Below are positions 37,233 through 43,979 of a DNA stretch of 64,000 nucleotides, one piece after another. Position numbers and translations under genes: made by a program. The DNA is from Escherichia phage REP1, in sequence record OQ174500.1, one strand, 5' to 3'. How positions within the stretch are numbered: position 1 is the first letter of the stretch; each line of letters opens with the position of its first letter. The notes under the pieces are model-generated. The model had not been told where the DNA came from and did not search any database. It saw only the letters and a program-made list of their open reading frames with translations.

Positions 37233-37493
37233 ATGATTAACATCAATTCAAAATATTTAAATCGTCTAATAGATGGTATAAGGAAGCATACTAATAAGCA
37301 AGATAATCTCGATGTTATGGTAACAGGAGCTGAGCTCCTTCATAAGCTTTATCTTATAAGTGATACTATATTAGCAATTAAACGAATTGAAAAACAATCA
37401 TATCACAGTAATACAGATACGGTAATTACACTAGATGAAAGTGTCTGTAAATTACTAATTAAATTTGAGGAAGCTATTCGTGGAAATAACTAA
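37233..37493 (+). CDS. hypothetical protein, first of three tandem small ORFs
   Basis: 86-aa ORF. Confidence 0.5.
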   Translation: MININSKYLNRLIDGIRKHTNKQDNLDVMVTGAELLHKLYLISDTILAIKRIEKQSYHSNTDTVITLDESVCKLLIKFEEAIRGNN

Positions 37494-37725
37494 AGATCAG
37501 TTTTATCTTCTTCAGGATAAAGTTAGCGAAATTTATGAAATTGCTCATGGTAAAAATCGTGAAACTGTAAAAATTGAATCTAGTAAGTTGATGCTTCAAT
37601 TAGAAGAAATTGAACGAGATTTAATTGCGTTAGAATTCTTTTGCGGTGAAGTGAAAACTGTTACAATTAATGATTATGTTTTAGGCGAAATTAGCTATCT
37701 TTATGAGGCGATTATTAATGATTGA
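37465..37725 (+). CDS. hypothetical protein (paralog family; probable start at GTG 37480)
   Basis: Track start is TTG; GAGGAAG RBS precedes GTG at 37480. Confidence 0.45.
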   Translation: MRKLFVEITKDQFYLLQDKVSEIYEIAHGKNRETVKIESSKLMLQLEEIERDLIALEFFCGEVKTVTINDYVLGEISYLYEAIIND

Positions 37726-37960
37726 ATTAAGTTGGTACCAATTTAAATCTCTTATGACAAATGTTAAAGCTGTCATTGAAGAAAATTCAGGACCTGATAA
37801 TGTTACTATTCGCGAAAAAGCTTTAAAGATAGTATACAGTCTTGAAGAGATACAAAAAGATATTGAATCTATGGCAAAATTTATTGATGAGCCTATTAAT
37901 AAAGTTTATATTCAAGACTATACTGTAGGTCAAATTCGCGATTTAGCAAGGAAAATTTAA
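37718..37960 (+). CDS. hypothetical protein (paralog of preceding ORF)
   Basis: 80 aa; shared LEEIxxDI and DYxxGxI pattern. Confidence 0.45.
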   Translation: MIELSWYQFKSLMTNVKAVIEENSGPDNVTIREKALKIVYSLEEIQKDIESMAKFIDEPINKVYIQDYTVGQIRDLARKI

Positions 37961-38643
37961 TGTTTGATTTTATTATAGATTTTGAAACAATGGGAAGTGG
38001 TGAAAAAGCAGCTGTTATTGATTTGGCTGTAATTGCTTTTGACCCTAATCCAGAAGTCGTTGAAACATTTGATGAATTAGTTTCACGTGGCATTAAAATC
38101 AAATTTGATTTAAAAAGCCAAAAAGGACATCGTCTTTTTACTAAAAGCACTATCGAATGGTGGAAGAATCAATCCCCTGAAGCTCGAAAAAATATTGCGC
38201 CATCAGATGAAGATGTAAGCACTATCGATGGTATTGCAAAATTTAATGATTACATCAATGCGCATAATATCGATCCTTGGAAATCTCAAGGCTGGTGCCG
38301 TGGAATGTCGTTTGATTTTCCAATTTTAGTCGATCTCATTCGCGATATTCAACGTCTTAACGGCGTTTCCGAGAATGAGCTTGATACATTTAAGTTAGAA
38401 CCGTGTAAATTCTGGAATCAGCGTGATATTCGTACCAGAATTGAAGCACTTCTCCTTGTTCGTGATATGACTACGTGTCCTCTTCCAAAAGGAACTTTAG
38501 ATGGATTCGTTGCGCATGATTCCATTCATGACTGTGCGAAAGACATCCTGATGATGAAGTATGCTTTGCGCTATGCTATGGGTCTTGAAGATGCTCCGTC
38601 AGAGGAAGAGTGCGATCCTCTATCTCTTCCAACAAAACGATAA
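37960..38643 (+). CDS. dexA: exonuclease A (DEDDh 3'-5' exonuclease)
   Basis: 227 aa; N-terminal DFETMG exo I motif; matches T4 DexA. Confidence 0.9.
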   Translation: MFDFIIDFETMGSGEKAAVIDLAVIAFDPNPEVVETFDELVSRGIKIKFDLKSQKGHRLFTKSTIEWWKNQSPEARKNIAPSDEDVSTIDGIAKFNDYINAHNIDPWKSQGWCRGMSFDFPILVDLIRDIQRLNGVSENELDTFKLEPCKFWNQRDIRTRIEALLLVRDMTTCPLPKGTLDGFVAHDSIHDCAKDILMMKYALRYAMGLEDAPSEEECDPLSLPTKR

Positions 38644-38706: not shown

Positions 38707-39210
38707 ATGAAAATTTATCGTGTTGAATCATCATTTAGTATTCTTAATTATGAAGATGCTATAACAATACGTCGAGATCTTTGTGTTCAAATAACTCCGT
38801 ACAGGAGTATAATGGATTCATGGAGCGAAGAGTGGTTATTACACGTAGGTTATGACAGACCTAATTTTATGCATCATAGTAATGATAATAAAAGAATTCC
38901 TCTTCCGCACGAAGACAAACTATTAGTTAAAAATGCTAATATAGCAATTAATACTAATTTTGAGAAAGAAGAATATGTAGGCGTAGATCACTATATTCCA
39001 GGATGGTTTATAGCTCTTTATCATTTTGCTTTTGCTAGTGAATATGATATGATGAGATGGTTCACACGAGAAGAGCGTGAAGAATTAGCTTCTAAAGGAT
39101 TTTATCTCGCTGTATACGAAGTACCTGAAGATAAAGTTATCATTGGTGGGCATCAAGTAATGTTCCGCAAGTCACATGCCGAATTAAAAGGCTTTATTAC
39201 CTTAGATTAA
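38707..39210 (+). CDS. hypothetical early protein
   Basis: 167 aa from ATG after GAGGA RBS. Confidence 0.5.
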   Translation: MKIYRVESSFSILNYEDAITIRRDLCVQITPYRSIMDSWSEEWLLHVGYDRPNFMHHSNDNKRIPLPHEDKLLVKNANIAINTNFEKEEYVGVDHYIPGWFIALYHFAFASEYDMMRWFTREEREELASKGFYLAVYEVPEDKVIIGGHQVMFRKSHAELKGFITLD

Positions 39211-39220
39211 AGAGAAAATT

Positions 39221-39658
39221 ATGATTAAAAATAATGCTGTTTATCAATTGAAAAAATTTGATGAAATTAAGAATTTTTCGGTACTGTCTAATACAGCTCA
39301 TAATAAGTTTTGTGAACTTCTTGGTTTAACTGGCGGATATCCTTTTACTGTTATTAGTGTTAATAGCGGAATTCTTATCGGTATGATGTATATTGAAATT
39401 AGAAACTATTATGGAATGGTATCACCGCTTATTATTTATGAAAAAGATTTTAGTCTATTGACAGAAATTGAAAAACCTGAAGATCCAACTGATCTGCTGT
39501 GTAAGGCAGTTTATATTCGTCGTCCATTCGCGAATCCTGTGGGTGGATGGGTGACTGATCAGTGGATTGAAGATGGTGTTGAACTTCTGAACGTAGTTCA
39601 TGCTGGAGAGTACTCTGTAGTTCCTCGCAGCGCAGTGATTAATGTTCGTGTAAGCTAG
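39221..39658 (+). CDS. hypothetical protein sharing C-terminal domain with the next two ORFs
   Basis: 145 aa; C-terminal GGWVTDQWIEDGVELLNVVHAGEYSVVP. Confidence 0.55.
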   Translation: MIKNNAVYQLKKFDEIKNFSVLSNTAHNKFCELLGLTGGYPFTVISVNSGILIGMMYIEIRNYYGMVSPLIIYEKDFSLLTEIEKPEDPTDLLCKAVYIRRPFANPVGGWVTDQWIEDGVELLNVVHAGEYSVVPRSAVINVRVS

Positions 39659-39688
39659 TTTACAAACTCTTGGACCAGAGTATAATGG
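39658..39688 (+). promoter_or_regulatory. early promoter (GTTTAC, 17 nt, TATAAT)
   Basis: taGTTTACaaactcttggaccagagTATAAT. Confidence 0.5.
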
Positions 39689-39729
39689 TCCTGCGGAGTA
39701 TAAATCTTAACAACAAAGAGAGAAAAATT

Positions 39730-40203
39730 ATGATTACTATCGGTGAAATTAAGCGTGTATCGTCTGCATCTCGTTCTAAAGCTGCAGGTCGTCTAGTTGA
39801 AGTGGTAGGACTTCGTACTAATGGTACTGGTCGTGTTAAAGAAGTTAAAGTTCGAATCATTCCTAGTTCTGGAAAAACTGAAACTCAGTACGCTTACGTA
39901 AGTCCTAAATTTCTGGAAACTCGTGTTAGCTCTCATTTTGCTTCTGTTGAAGAAGTTGAATCCACTGAGTCTAATGCACAATTTAAATGGGCGTTGTGTA
40001 AAGGCGTTGAATTTGTAACTGATGAAGAATTCGATTATATTGATGATTTCGCTGGTCCAAGTAAAACTGATAGGATGTGTGGCTTCATCACAGACCAATG
40101 GGTTGAAGATGGTGAAAAGCTCTACAATATCGTATTCTTAGGTGACTTCCGGGTTGTTGAAGAATCTGAAATCACTCGTTATGCTTCTCCTCATAAAGCT
40201 TAA
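39730..40203 (+). CDS. hypothetical protein, tandem paralog
   Basis: 157 aa; ASRSKAAGRLVEV N-term and GFITDQWVEDGEKLYNIVFLGDFRVV C-term. Confidence 0.55.
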   Translation: MITIGEIKRVSSASRSKAAGRLVEVVGLRTNGTGRVKEVKVRIIPSSGKTETQYAYVSPKFLETRVSSHFASVEEVESTESNAQFKWALCKGVEFVTDEEFDYIDDFAGPSKTDRMCGFITDQWVEDGEKLYNIVFLGDFRVVEESEITRYASPHKA

Positions 40204-40212
40204 GGAATTATT

Positions 40213-40632
40213 ATGAATATTGTAAATCTCTCTACTGGTGATTACGTATATGTATCCGTTGCTTCTCGTTCTAAAGTTGCAGGAAAGCTGGTTGAAGTTC
40301 TTTCTGTAAGTGATCCAGTTTTTGGTCGTAACGAGGTTAAAGTTCGTGACGCTGATGGTAACATTGGTTATGTCTCAAGTCAGTTCATTGAGCCAGAAGA
40401 AAGCGCATTTAAATGGAAACTTTGTTCTTCAGTTTTAGTTGTAAAAGACCATAAATTCACAATTGCGGCGGCAACAGATGGAACTCCATGGACAACGAAT
40501 CAAGTCGCTGGTTTTATTTCGGACCGTTGGGTAGAAGATGGTGTCAAGCTCTACAATATTGTTTTTGCAGGCCAGTTCATGGTAGTTCCTGAATTCCAAA
40601 TTAAAAAATGGTGCGAAGCAGCTTTAGCATAA
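40213..40632 (+). CDS. hypothetical protein, tandem paralog
   Basis: 139 aa; ASRSKVAGKLVEV and GFISDRWVEDGVKLYNIVFAGQFMVV. Confidence 0.55.
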   Translation: MNIVNLSTGDYVYVSVASRSKVAGKLVEVLSVSDPVFGRNEVKVRDADGNIGYVSSQFIEPEESAFKWKLCSSVLVVKDHKFTIAAATDGTPWTTNQVAGFISDRWVEDGVKLYNIVFAGQFMVVPEFQIKKWCEAALA

Positions 40633-40738
40633 ATTTGCATAAAGTTTAAAATTTTTCATAAAACTATATACATCAGTAGTTGATTATGGTACTATATCAA
40701 TATCAACTACTGATACAGAAAACAACTTGGAGAATAAA

Positions 40739-41008
40739 ATGGAAAATTTAATTATCATCGAGCAATCTTTCAATGATTATGGTATGGCTTATGGTTATCG
40801 TGCGATAATGGAAGATTCTCGTGGATGTGTTATCGATATTGCTGAATGTAAAGATTTACTGCAGCTTTTGAAGATTGTTCGCAAAAATTGGGATTGTGAA
40901 AATATTAAAGTTCGAGTTGTTACAGAAGAAGAAACTGTTTTTCATGATGTAAAATTTGCCAAAGGTGCTGCTACTCTTCTGAAACGCATCGCTCCACTGT
41001 TCAATTAA
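40739..41008 (+). CDS. hypothetical protein
   Basis: 89 aa from ATG after GGAGAA RBS. Confidence 0.5.
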   Translation: MENLIIIEQSFNDYGMAYGYRAIMEDSRGCVIDIAECKDLLQLLKIVRKNWDCENIKVRVVTEEETVFHDVKFAKGAATLLKRIAPLFN

Positions 41009-41237: not shown

Positions 41238-41650
41238 TGGCTATTAAATTTGAAGTTAATAAATGGTATCAATTTAAAAATAAACAAGCTCAAGAAAATT
41301 TTATTAAAGACCATACTGAAAACGGACTCTACGCACGACGTTTAGGTATGTATCCTTTTAAAATTTTAGATGTGGACGCTCTTGGGCGTCCAATTAAAAT
41401 TTTGTCATCTACTGGAAATTTAGTACTATCTTCTGGTAAAGATGTTTTGGATGAAGACTTTATTTGGCTTTCAAAAAGTGAAGCTGGGTTCTTTGATGAA
41501 GTGGAAAATCCATATCAGGCAGCTGAAGAGCAGGAAGACCCTGCACCAGTAATTGACCCATCTGAGTTTCCTTTAATGAAAATTACTATTGAAAATAATT
41601 ACCAAGCATGGTCTTTATATCAGATGCTGAAAGCTCACTTTAAGGAATAA
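41237..41650 (+). CDS. hypothetical protein
   Basis: 137-aa ORF. Confidence 0.5.
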
Positions 41651-41652
41651 TT

Positions 41653-41829
41653 ATGCCACTTTATGATTATAAATGTCAATTCAAAGACTGTGCAAAAGAA
41701 TACGAAAAAATCAAGAAAATTTCTGAAAGGGATACTGATGTATGTCCTGATTGTTATCGGCTGGCTGTTCGGTTAGTTTCCGCTCCTAAGCGTGTGAATG
41801 GCGGATTTTACGACTTGCTTAAAGGGTAA
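41653..41829 (+). CDS. small zinc-ribbon protein (FmdB-type CxxC...CxxC)
   Basis: 58 aa MPLYDYKCQFKDC...CPDC; tightly packed between flanking ORFs; not in track. Confidence 0.4.
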   Translation: MPLYDYKCQFKDCAKEYEKIKKISERDTDVCPDCYRLAVRLVSAPKRVNGGFYDLLKG

Positions 41830-42158: not shown

Positions 42159-43979
42159 GTGATGATTAAGAATGAAATTAAAATTCTGAGCGATATTGAA
42201 CATATCAAAAAGCGTAGCGGCATGTACATTGGCTCTTCAGCTAATGAAATGCATGAGCGCTTTCTGTTTGGTAAATGGGAAAGTGTTCAGTATGTACCTG
42301 GTCTTGTTAAGCTTATTGATGAAATTATCGATAACTCAGTAGATGAAGGTATTCGTACTAAGTTTAAATTCGCGAATAAAATTAATGTTACCATTAAAAA
42401 TAATCAGGTAACAGTTGAAGATAATGGTCGCGGTATTCCACAAGCGATGGTTAAAACACCTACCGGTGAAGAAATTCCTGGTCCAGTTGCTGCTTGGACT
42501 ATTCCAAAAGCAGGTGGTAACTTCGGTGATGATAAAGAACGCGTCACTGGTGGTATGAATGGTGTTGGTTCTAGTTTGACAAACATTTTTTCTGTGATGT
42601 TTGTCGGTGAAACTGGCGATGGTCAAAATAATATTGTAGTTCGTTGTTCAAATGGCATGGAAAATAAATCATGGGAAGATATTCCTGGAAAATGGAAAGG
42701 AACCCGTGTTACTTTCATTCCTGATTTTATGTCATTTGAAACTAATGAGCTGTCCCAAGTTTATCTTGACATTACACTAGATCGTCTCCAAACACTTGCT
42801 GTTGTTTATCCTGATATTCAATTTACCTTTAATGGTAAAAAGGTTCAGGGTAATTTTAAGAAATACGCACGCCAATATGATGAACATGCTATCGTTCAAG
42901 AACAAGAAAATTGTTCTATTGCGGTTGGTCGTTCACCGGATGGATTTCGTCAGTTAACTTATGTGAATAACATTCACACTAAGAATGGTGGCCATCATAT
43001 TGACTGTGTTATGGATGATATTTGTGAAGACCTTATTCCACAAATCAAACGTAAGTTCAAAATTGATGTAACTAAAGCACGCGTTAAAGAATGTTTGACT
43101 ATCGTTATGTTTGTTCGTGATATGAAAAACATGCGATTTGATTCTCAAACTAAAGAGCGTTTGACTTCTCCATTTGGCGAAATTCGTAGTCATATTCAAC
43201 TTGATGCTAAAAAGATTTCACGTGCTATTCTAAATAATGAAGCAATTCTAATGCCAATTATTGAAGCAGCATTAGCTCGTAAATTGGCAGCAGAAAAAGC
43301 AGCAGAAACTAAAGCAGCTAAAAAGGCTTCTAAAGCTAAGGTTCATAAACATATTAAAGCGAATCTTTGCGGTAAAGATGCTGACACTACTCTTTTCTTG
43401 ACTGAAGGTGATTCTGCTATCGGATATCTTATTGATGTTCGTGATAAAGAACTTCATGGTGGTTATCCATTACGTGGTAAAGTTCTTAATAGTTGGGGTA
43501 TGTCATATGCTGATATGCTTAAAAACAAAGAACTATTTGATATTTGCGCAATCACTGGATTAGTTCTTGGTGAAAAGGCTGAAAACTTGAATTATCATAA
43601 TATTGCTATTATGACCGATGCTGACCATGATGGTCTAGGAAGCATTTATCCTTCTCTGCTCGGATTTTTTAGTAATTGGCCAGAATTGTTTGAGCAAGGA
43701 CGAATTCGCTTTGTCAAAACTCCTGTAATCATCGCTCAGGTCGGTAAAAAACAAGAATGGTTTTATACAGTCGCTGAATATGAGAGTGCCAAAGATGCTC
43801 TACCTAAACATAGCATCCGTTATATTAAAGGACTTGGCTCTTTGGAAAAATCTGAATATCGTGAGATGATTCAAAACCCAGTATATGATGTTGTTAAACT
43901 TCCTGAGAACTGGAAAGAGCTTTTTGAAATGCTCATGGGGGATAATGCTGACCTTCGTAAAGAATGGATGAGCCAGTAG
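42159..43979 (+). CDS. 39: DNA topoisomerase II large subunit gp39 (GyrB-like), unsplit
   Basis: 606 aa; GHKL ATPase motif EIIDNSVDE; Toprim motifs LTEGDSA and TDADHDG; single continuous ORF. Confidence 0.93.
   Translation: MMIKNEIKILSDIEHIKKRSGMYIGSSANEMHERFLFGKWESVQYVPGLVKLIDEIIDNSVDEGIRTKFKFANKINVTIKNNQVTVEDNGRGIPQAMVKTPTGEEIPGPVAAWTIPKAGGNFGDDKERVTGGMNGVGSSLTNIFSVMFVGETGDGQNNIVVRCSNGMENKSWEDIPGKWKGTRVTFIPDFMSFETNELSQVYLDITLDRLQTLAVVYPDIQFTFNGKKVQGNFKKYARQYDEHAIVQEQENCSIAVGRSPDGFRQLTYVNNIHTKNGGHHIDCVMDDICEDLIPQIKRKFKIDVTKARVKECLTIVMFVRDMKNMRFDSQTKERLTSPFGEIRSHIQLDAKKISRAILNNEAILMPIIEAALARKLAAEKAAETKAAKKASKAKVHKHIKANLCGKDADTTLFLTEGDSAIGYLIDVRDKELHGGYPLRGKVLNSWGMSYADMLKNKELFDICAITGLVLGEKAENLNYHNIAIMTDADHDGLGSIYPSLLGFFSNWPELFEQGRIRFVKTPVIIAQVGKKQEWFYTVAEYESAKDALPKHSIRYIKGLGSLEKSEYREMIQNPVYDVVKLPENWKELFEMLMGDNADLRKEWMSQ

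Follow-up and report, generated by a model that had tools for sequence, protein, structure and literature searches.

Escherichia phage REP1 carries a tandem trio of MotB-family genes with a shared C-terminal domain and an RB69-type motB pair in a T4-type setting

Results

Three tandem genes of the MotB family

We analyzed a 64,000-nucleotide stretch of DNA from Escherichia phage REP1 (OQ174500.1), hereafter the window, in which three consecutive open reading frames (ORFs) on the plus strand encode related proteins: ORF1 (39221-39658, 145 aa), ORF2 (39730-40203, 157 aa from its ATG), and ORF3 (40213-40632, 139 aa). These genes belong to the known MotB family, which is small and confined to phages, and stand in a known arrangement. 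ORF1 is a motB.1 homolog, ORF2 is a motB of the RB69 type, and ORF3 is a second motB-like gene, whose product is labeled "MotB-like transcriptional regulator" at the locus. Taken together, the data make it probable that the array is the MotB-family trio of an RB3-like, T4-type phage (Tequatrovirus), that it serves a MotB-type function, that it arose by old duplication and N-terminal replacement, and that it includes an RB69-type cassette.

All three proteins exceeded the gathering cut-off of 25 bits for PF17613 (motB, modifier of transcription), scoring 32.7 (ORF1), 141.3 (ORF2), and 72.1 bits (ORF3). The match covered the full length of ORF2 and only the last 36 residues of ORF1. Among PHROG families, ORF2 (E = 2e-68) and ORF3 were both assigned to phrog_1671 (MotB-like), and ORF1 to phrog_2333 with a secondary match to phrog_1671. 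The KOW-like N-terminal domain and SRSKxAG motif that mark MotB proper ("Category 1" of PMC7827196) were both found. Neither the PADLOC defense and anti-defense models nor the NCBIfam models matched any of the three proteins.

Between them, Pfam, GenBank annotations, and two papers already cover the family, its common C-terminal domain, the duplication hypothesis, and genomes with multiple copies. An alignment of 102 phage homologs showed that MotB and MotB.1 have the C-terminal domain in common and differ in the N-terminal one (Patterson-West et al. 2021, PMC7827196). The same study proposed that one of motB and motB.1 originated by duplication of the other, found both genes in 40 genomes, noted phages with extra copies, and described in RB69 two motB copies, one motB.1, and one 29-aa peptide. 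RB69ORF010c has been annotated as "similar to motB" in AY303349 since 2003. T4 MotB itself is made early and in abundance. Its binding to DNA is tight and non-specific; it co-purifies, by way of DNA, with the host nucleoid protein H-NS and with StpA, and it alters the H-NS footprint (Patterson-West et al. 2018, PMC6070864; PMC7827196). It is toxic when expressed alone, doubles burst size, and de-represses H-NS-silenced host genes, with 75 host genes upregulated, of which roughly one in three belongs to the H-NS regulon (PMC6070864, PMC7827196).

Paralogy of the three genes

The original prediction held that the three genes are tandem paralogs ending in a common domain, and this was borne out by the pairwise alignments. 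BLASTP related ORF1 to ORF2 at E = 2e-12, ORF2 to ORF3 at E = 1e-29 with 40% identity end to end, and ORF1 to ORF3 at E = 2e-11, with 17 of 32 residues identical at the C-terminus. In Smith-Waterman alignments, the same pairs scored 113, 228, and 107, respectively, where shuffled sequences averaged 27-29 (standard deviation 4.4-4.8), and for each pair the observed score was reached by 0 of 2000 shuffles. BLASTP and shuffles together rule out chance similarity among the ORFs. The N-terminal half of ORF1 showed no significant similarity to those of ORF2 and ORF3, its scores being reached by 14 and 351 of 2000 shuffles, respectively. Across the core of the C-terminal domain, identity at the DNA level was 64-74%. 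When the window was translated in all six frames, a profile of this domain detected these three copies, at 92-111 bits; no fourth copy was found by this search, in which the next best match had E = 0.78.

The sequence features quoted in that prediction were likewise all present. The C-terminal module reads GWVTDQWIEDGVELLNVVHAGEYSVV in ORF1, GFITDQWVEDGEKLYNIVFLGDFRVV in ORF2, and GFISDRWVEDGVKLYNIVFAGQFMVV in ORF3; the ASRSK-type N-terminal motif reads ASRSKAAGRLVEV in ORF2 and ASRSKVAGKLVEV in ORF3; and the central FKWxLC block is FKWALC in ORF2 and FKWKLC in ORF3. All three ORFs contain the core G-[WFY]-[IV]-[TS]-D-x-W-[IV]-E-x-G-x-x-L-x-N-[IV]-V...G.[FY]..V, and its G, D, W, E, G, L, N, V, and G residues did not vary when 15 sequences of the C-terminal domain were aligned.

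Domain architecture

Each protein is a two-domain all-beta protein, in which a variable SH3-like small barrel is followed by a conserved C-terminal beta domain of 60-75 residues. MotB and MotB-like have a KOW-like N-terminal barrel; that of MotB.1 is of another kind and resembles LSm and EF-P domain I. In ORF1, the SH3/LSm-like barrel spans residues 1 to ~84 and the MotB-family C-terminal domain residues ~86-145 (DPTDLLC...GWVTDQWIEDGVELLNVVHAGEYSVVPRSAV). ORF2 consists of a KOW-like barrel (residues 1 to ~63), an acidic linker, and a C-terminal domain (residues ~85-157) that starts with FKWALC, and ORF3 has a KOW-like barrel at residues ~9-61, almost no linker, and a C-terminal domain at residues ~65-139.

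We used AlphaFold2 to model ORF3 from a 59-sequence alignment. The model, with a mean predicted local distance difference test (pLDDT) score of 84, comprised two all-beta domains, with N-terminal strands at residues 11-14, 26-32, 41-45, 51-55, and 59-61 and C-terminal strands at 73-85, 92-108, 111-118, 121-126, and 130-133. A Foldseek search of viral models (BFVD) returned family members and weak SH3-like matches and nothing else, and extended the architecture to Yersinia phiR1-RT, Serratia PS2, and Citrobacter Merlin phages. The N-terminal domain of ORF1 forms a bent five-stranded antiparallel sheet of the SH3/LSm type, with FeoA and Hfq as structural neighbors. A published analysis described the MotB.1 N-terminal domain as an LSm/SH3-like barrel structurally common to GoF and Frd.2, and its authors state that BLASTP finds no similarity between MotB.1 and GoF (Kim et al. 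2025, PMC12152347). When we compared shallow profiles of GoF (23 sequences) and ORF1-type N-terminal domains (20 sequences), hhalign gave a probability of 0.3%; no sequence-profile link was found among the KOW, LSm-like, and C-terminal domains and GoF, with hhalign probabilities of at most 1.2%. Among solved structures, no relative was detectable by sequence similarity, and the best E-values, 3.9 and 0.4, belonged to unrelated proteins. The KOW/Tudor/SH3-like barrels of NusG, Spt5, EF-P domain I, and eIF5A shared only 10-22% identity with the family, for which Pfam gave no KOW match at E<=1. Those barrels are parts of transcription or translation factors, whereas the MotB-family proteins are free-standing phage proteins of 140-160 aa.

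Comparison with T4 and RB69

ORF2 is the positional orthologue of T4 motB, with the dexA side upstream and cef downstream, and the two proteins align end to end at 46% identity (E = 6e-48), sharing the KOW-like N-terminal domain, the FKW block, and the C-terminal motif. ORF3 has the same architecture and is 37% identical to T4 MotB, from which it differs in being an additional, shorter copy whose linker is nearly absent and whose N-terminal domain is not basic. No counterpart of ORF3 exists in T4, T2, or T6, whereas RB69-type phages have one.

ORF1 occupies the position of T4 motB.1, directly before motB, and is 78% identical to T4 MotB.1, a 13.8-kDa early protein, over the part kept in T4. 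It is intact at 145 aa with a full C-terminal domain, whereas the T4 reference MotB.1 has 119 aa and ends in GWVTDQWIGRWR followed by the stop. The T4 gene (L003, NC_000866, 4143-4340, minus strand) carries a 1-nt G insertion in TGGATT-GAAGATGG, within the conserved motif, and the next frame encodes the other 29 residues of this domain (LEDGVELLNVVHAGEYSVVPRSAVVAILN and a stop). The experiments published on MotB.1 were done with this truncated, 13.8-kDa form. In most relatives the protein is intact at 143-145 aa, including one found on 256 contigs (P0120).

RB69 (AY303349; Mosigvirus) has the same three genes in the same order as the window, motB.1 - motB - RB69ORF010c, and its proteins are 85% identical to ORF2 and 87% identical to ORF3. 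Its motB.1 is of another subtype, ~48% identical to ORF1, and is broken by two frameshifts inside the C-terminal domain (L024, 1982-2478). RB69ORF012c, the 29-aa peptide placed in "Category 3" in PMC7827196, is the out-of-frame tail of this motB.1. The arrays also differ in their surroundings: motB.2 follows motB-like in RB69 and precedes motB.1 in the window, and the flanking genes of the window are T4-type, not RB69-type. A further motB.1 frameshift, in the linker, was seen in an IMG/VR locus (L005). Since the T4 and RB69 reference motB.1 genes are both frameshifted in the shared domain, intact three-gene phages of the RB3 kind are better models of the family.

Purifying selection, modular variation, and distribution

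We estimated the ratio of nonsynonymous to synonymous substitution (dN/dS) against orthologs by the Nei-Gojobori method. For ORF1, values were 0.07-0.28 overall, 0.41-0.54 in the N-terminal domain, and 0.00-0.03 in the C-terminal domain; divergent pairs gave 0.19-0.28 for ORF2, and ORF3 gave 0.07-0.17. The values for the three genes resembled those of neighboring genes. The three genes are thus under purifying selection, and the diversifying selection suggested by the original prediction did not hold up, dN/dS being well below 1 for divergent ortholog pairs, although pairwise dN/dS values could miss a small number of positively selected sites.

The variation that we did observe is modular: N-termini are swapped on the same C-terminal domain, and whole cassettes are exchanged between phage genera. 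Klebsiella phages combine a KOW N-terminal domain with a MotB.1-type C-terminal domain (P0222), and other proteins carry one to three tandem N-terminal barrels parted by a repeated IDFDVxSxYVxPV linker (P0133, P0134, and P0150). In three proteins from metagenome assemblies (P0028, P0029, and P0031), a MotB N-terminus is followed by a C-terminus of the ORF3 type, and the junction falls at or close to the FKWKLC block. Such chimeras are what unequal crossover of tandem motB and motB-like, reducing two genes to one, would give.

By tblastn, the family was present in ~770 of 50,697 phage records, all enterobacterial T4-like phages, with Escherichia, Shigella, Klebsiella, Yersinia, Salmonella, Enterobacter, Citrobacter, and Serratia as host genera. 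ORF3 orthologs (>=80% identity) occurred in 207 of 777 phage records and RB69-type MotB (ORF2-type, >=60%) in 202, while 569 had only T4-type MotB (<60%). As totals, the near-equal counts of 207 and 202 suggest that ORF3 and RB69-type MotB travel together. We counted copies in 28 loci, comprising 27 fetched loci and the window. Ten had three copies: the window, RB3, Manna, three IMG/VR contigs, and the Mosigviruses RB69, ESh15, JS09, and O157 typing phage 6. Two copies were found in T4 and 14 other loci, and one copy in three contigs.

We also searched 1.84 billion cluster representatives with the C-terminal profile using HMMER, which yielded 35 matches at E<=1e-3. About 27 of these were genuine members, all 100-200 aa long and nearly all consisting of KOW and C-terminal domains. 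Matches to long repeat-domain proteins (Ig, CarboxypepD_reg, InlB B-repeat, and phage-tail proteins; P0236, P0241, and P0244-P0249) were judged spurious because each consisted of several short stretches of 18-29 residues with summed scores. The matches to these proteins were weak, although one (P0245) even passes the Pfam motB threshold at 29.3 bits; one of the proteins carries GYATEQWVLDKNYITG units. We regard all of them as hairpin-motif look-alikes, not homologs.

An RB69-type cassette in a T4-type backbone

Between positions 38600 and 41100, the window was 98-99% identical to RB3 and JLBYU31, and the region was equally close (98-99%) to Escherichia phages RB5-RB10 and RB27 (Tequatrovirus). 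Comparison with T4 and RB69 in 200-nt sliding windows revealed a mosaic. In the flanks (dexA, motB.2, cef, and gene 39), identity was 95-98% with T4 and 70-78% with RB69. From ~39600 to 40600, identity to RB69 was 83-97.5%, peaking at 97.5% in 39600-39900, and T4 gave at most 79% or no match; T4-like identity (99%) returned from ~40600. Synonymous divergence (dS) to RB69 was 0.28 for motB and 0.63 for motB-like, and >2 for dexA and cef. This flip in identity, together with the low dS to RB69, indicates that motB and motB-like form an RB69-type cassette in a T4-type backbone. The pair behaves like a cassette that moves between Mosigvirus and Tequatrovirus. Both joints of the cassette lie at or near sequence coding for the conserved C-terminal domain, and this coding sequence seems to serve as a recombination joint.

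Discussion

A proposed MotB-type function and what weighs against it

We propose that the MotB of the window, at 46% identity to T4 MotB, would do the same kind of job as its T4 counterpart through its basic KOW domain, and that MotB-like and MotB.1 may be accessory variants that present the same C-terminal module behind differently charged or different N-terminal barrels. The array would have come from an old duplication followed by replacement of an N-terminal domain and would then have been kept by purifying selection; the motB and motB-like pair was probably recombined into the T4-type backbone as an RB69 (Mosigvirus)-type cassette.

Charge warns against a straightforward transfer of function from T4. 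T4 MotB has an isoelectric point (pI) of 9.3, with net charges of +5 in the N-terminal and +2 in the C-terminal domain. The window MotB, an RB69-type allele, has by contrast a pI of 5.3, with +7 in the N-terminal domain, -3 in the linker, and -8 in the C-terminal domain. MotB-like (pI 5.4) carries -1 and +1 in its N- and C-terminal domains, respectively, and MotB.1 of the window has a pI of 5.35. Across the family, the net charge averaged +3.6 for the KOW domain and, over 83 members, -3.5 for the C-terminal domain. The contrast of a basic KOW domain with an acidic C-terminal domain favors KOW as the nucleic-acid-binding part.

Several points weigh against a shared MotB-type function. It is transferred from T4 MotB at identities of only 46% (ORF2) and 37% (ORF3), and the model of ORF1 has low confidence across the C-terminal domain. 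All three proteins are acidic overall, and the N-terminal domain is basic in ORF2 only, so strong non-specific DNA binding may not hold for all of them. Moreover, deletion of T4 motB.1 has no phenotype (PMC12152347); because the T4 allele is C-terminally truncated, this deletion says little about the intact protein.

Alternative explanations

A published HHpred analysis proposed that the C-terminal domain of MotB is an OB-fold of the cold-shock DNA-binding type. If so, the common activity would reside in this domain, and all three paralogs would be DNA-binding nucleoid modifiers. We consider this doubtful. The C-terminal domain is acidic where KOW is basic, both on the family average and in the window MotB (-8 against +7). 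An OB-fold is a five-stranded barrel in which a cross-over, often helical, leads from strand 3 to strand 4. In the ORF3 model, the corresponding strands 111-118 and 121-126 are joined by two residues, which would imply a hairpin rather than an OB cross-over, and no OB-fold protein appeared among the top 60 fold matches when the whole two-domain ORF3 model was the query. Charge and fold data thus question whether the shared domain is the DNA-binding part, and make it a candidate protein-interaction or oligomerization module, in rivalry with the OB-fold idea. Such a module could mediate homo- or hetero-oligomerization of the paralogs or bind a common host or phage partner, while the barrels confer different specificities. 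That the acidic C-terminal domain occurs with N-termini of three or more kinds (KOW, LSm-like, and one to three repeated barrels), that it is highly constrained in ORF1 next to a relaxed N-terminal domain, and that most genomes co-encode two or three family members all speak for this explanation, which we nonetheless hold only tentatively, as a DNA-independent interaction between MotB and H-NS could not be found (PMC7827196) and AlphaFold3 gave no confident homomultimers of MotB.1, in its truncated T4 form (PMC12152347). A more specific version, in which the C-terminal module is an acidic SH3-like/meander docking or oligomerization handle and the family consists of modular adaptors to one partner, is speculative and on balance unlikely. 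Were it true, the interchangeable barrels (KOW, LSm-like, and repeated) would bring different nucleic acids or proteins to the shared partner, and the published T4 MotB.1 work would have used a natural truncation lacking most of the handle.

The family might also act on RNA or translation rather than on DNA, given that barrels of the KOW, LSm-like, and EF-P/eIF5A-like kinds typically bind RNA or ribosomes; we think this rather improbable. Still less probable is a recently duplicated arms-race family under diversifying selection, with each copy directed at a different host factor. Tandem genes in the early region, copy numbers from one to three between phages, and N-termini that differ between copies are what such a family would show. 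Against it, the pairwise dN/dS values given above are low throughout, the paralogs are old (40% and ~30% identity) and each has its own conserved ortholog group, and PADLOC gave no match to an anti-defense or defense model. A MotB-family trio of old duplication, with MotB-type function, remains the reading that we prefer.

Locus and gene context

The early, host-interaction setting assumed in the original prediction was confirmed. The array lies in the early, non-essential host-takeover region of T-even phages between dexA and cef/goF/gene 39, in the order of RB3, T4, and RB69, with a strong early-promoter-like site just before motB. Upstream of ORF1 are dexA (37960-38643) and, directly before it, a MotB.2 homolog (38707-39210). 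Downstream of ORF3, a 90-aa ORF (40736-41008; phrog_3720) is followed by cef, goF, 39.2, 39.1, and gene 39. The T4 order of dexA, motB.2, motB.1, motB, and cef equals that of the window minus ORF3 and the 90-aa ORF.

The longest mechanical frame of ORF2 starts at a TTG at 39670 and gives 177 aa; RB3 annotates the 157-aa form, as motB, and the ATG of this form is preceded by an A-rich GAGAG Shine-Dalgarno-like stretch. ORF3 starts 9 nt past the stop of ORF2, with AAGGA ahead of its start. Between motB.1 and motB, a plus-strand sigma-70 / T4 early-promoter-like site (39659-39686; TTTACA, 16 nt, TATAAT) agrees with the consensus at 11 of 12 positions, as a consensus match and not a mapped promoter, and its GTTTACAAACTCT block is kept in T4. 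In the 95-nt spacer after motB-like, a 13-bp perfect inverted repeat on the plus strand (40672-40714) could form a hairpin. The RNA fold of 40633-40735 had an energy of -24.2 kcal/mol (z = -5.5), and none of 200 shuffles was equally stable. The hairpin was missed by a terminator scan and is not a canonical intrinsic terminator, because no T-run follows it; it may be where the motB/motB-like transcript ends or is processed. Judged by these sequence signals, the promoter-like site and the hairpin are consistent with motB and motB-like forming one early transcription unit.

Neither neighboring gene proved to be a MotB relative. The MotB.2 homolog, labeled "transcriptional regulator" in some GenBank records, gave hhalign probabilities of <=0.3% against MotB domains, and the 90-aa ORF gave <=0.8%; neither shares a Pfam or PHROG family with MotB. 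The 90-aa ORF is absent in T4 and was present at 99% identity in 3 of the 27 fetched loci (L001, L002, and L019). At goF/39.2 (41300-41700) lies a second patch of divergence, where identity to RB3 is only 75-80%. The dexA.2 (37465-37725, 86 aa) and dexA.1 (37703-37960, 85 aa) homologs upstream of dexA are also tandem paralogs, with 31% identity over 83 aa (BLASTP E = 1e-10). Finally, gene 39 (42159-43979), encoding the topoisomerase II large subunit, is a single ORF of 606 aa, like that of RB69 ("60plus39") and RB3 and unlike the split genes 39 and 60 of T4.

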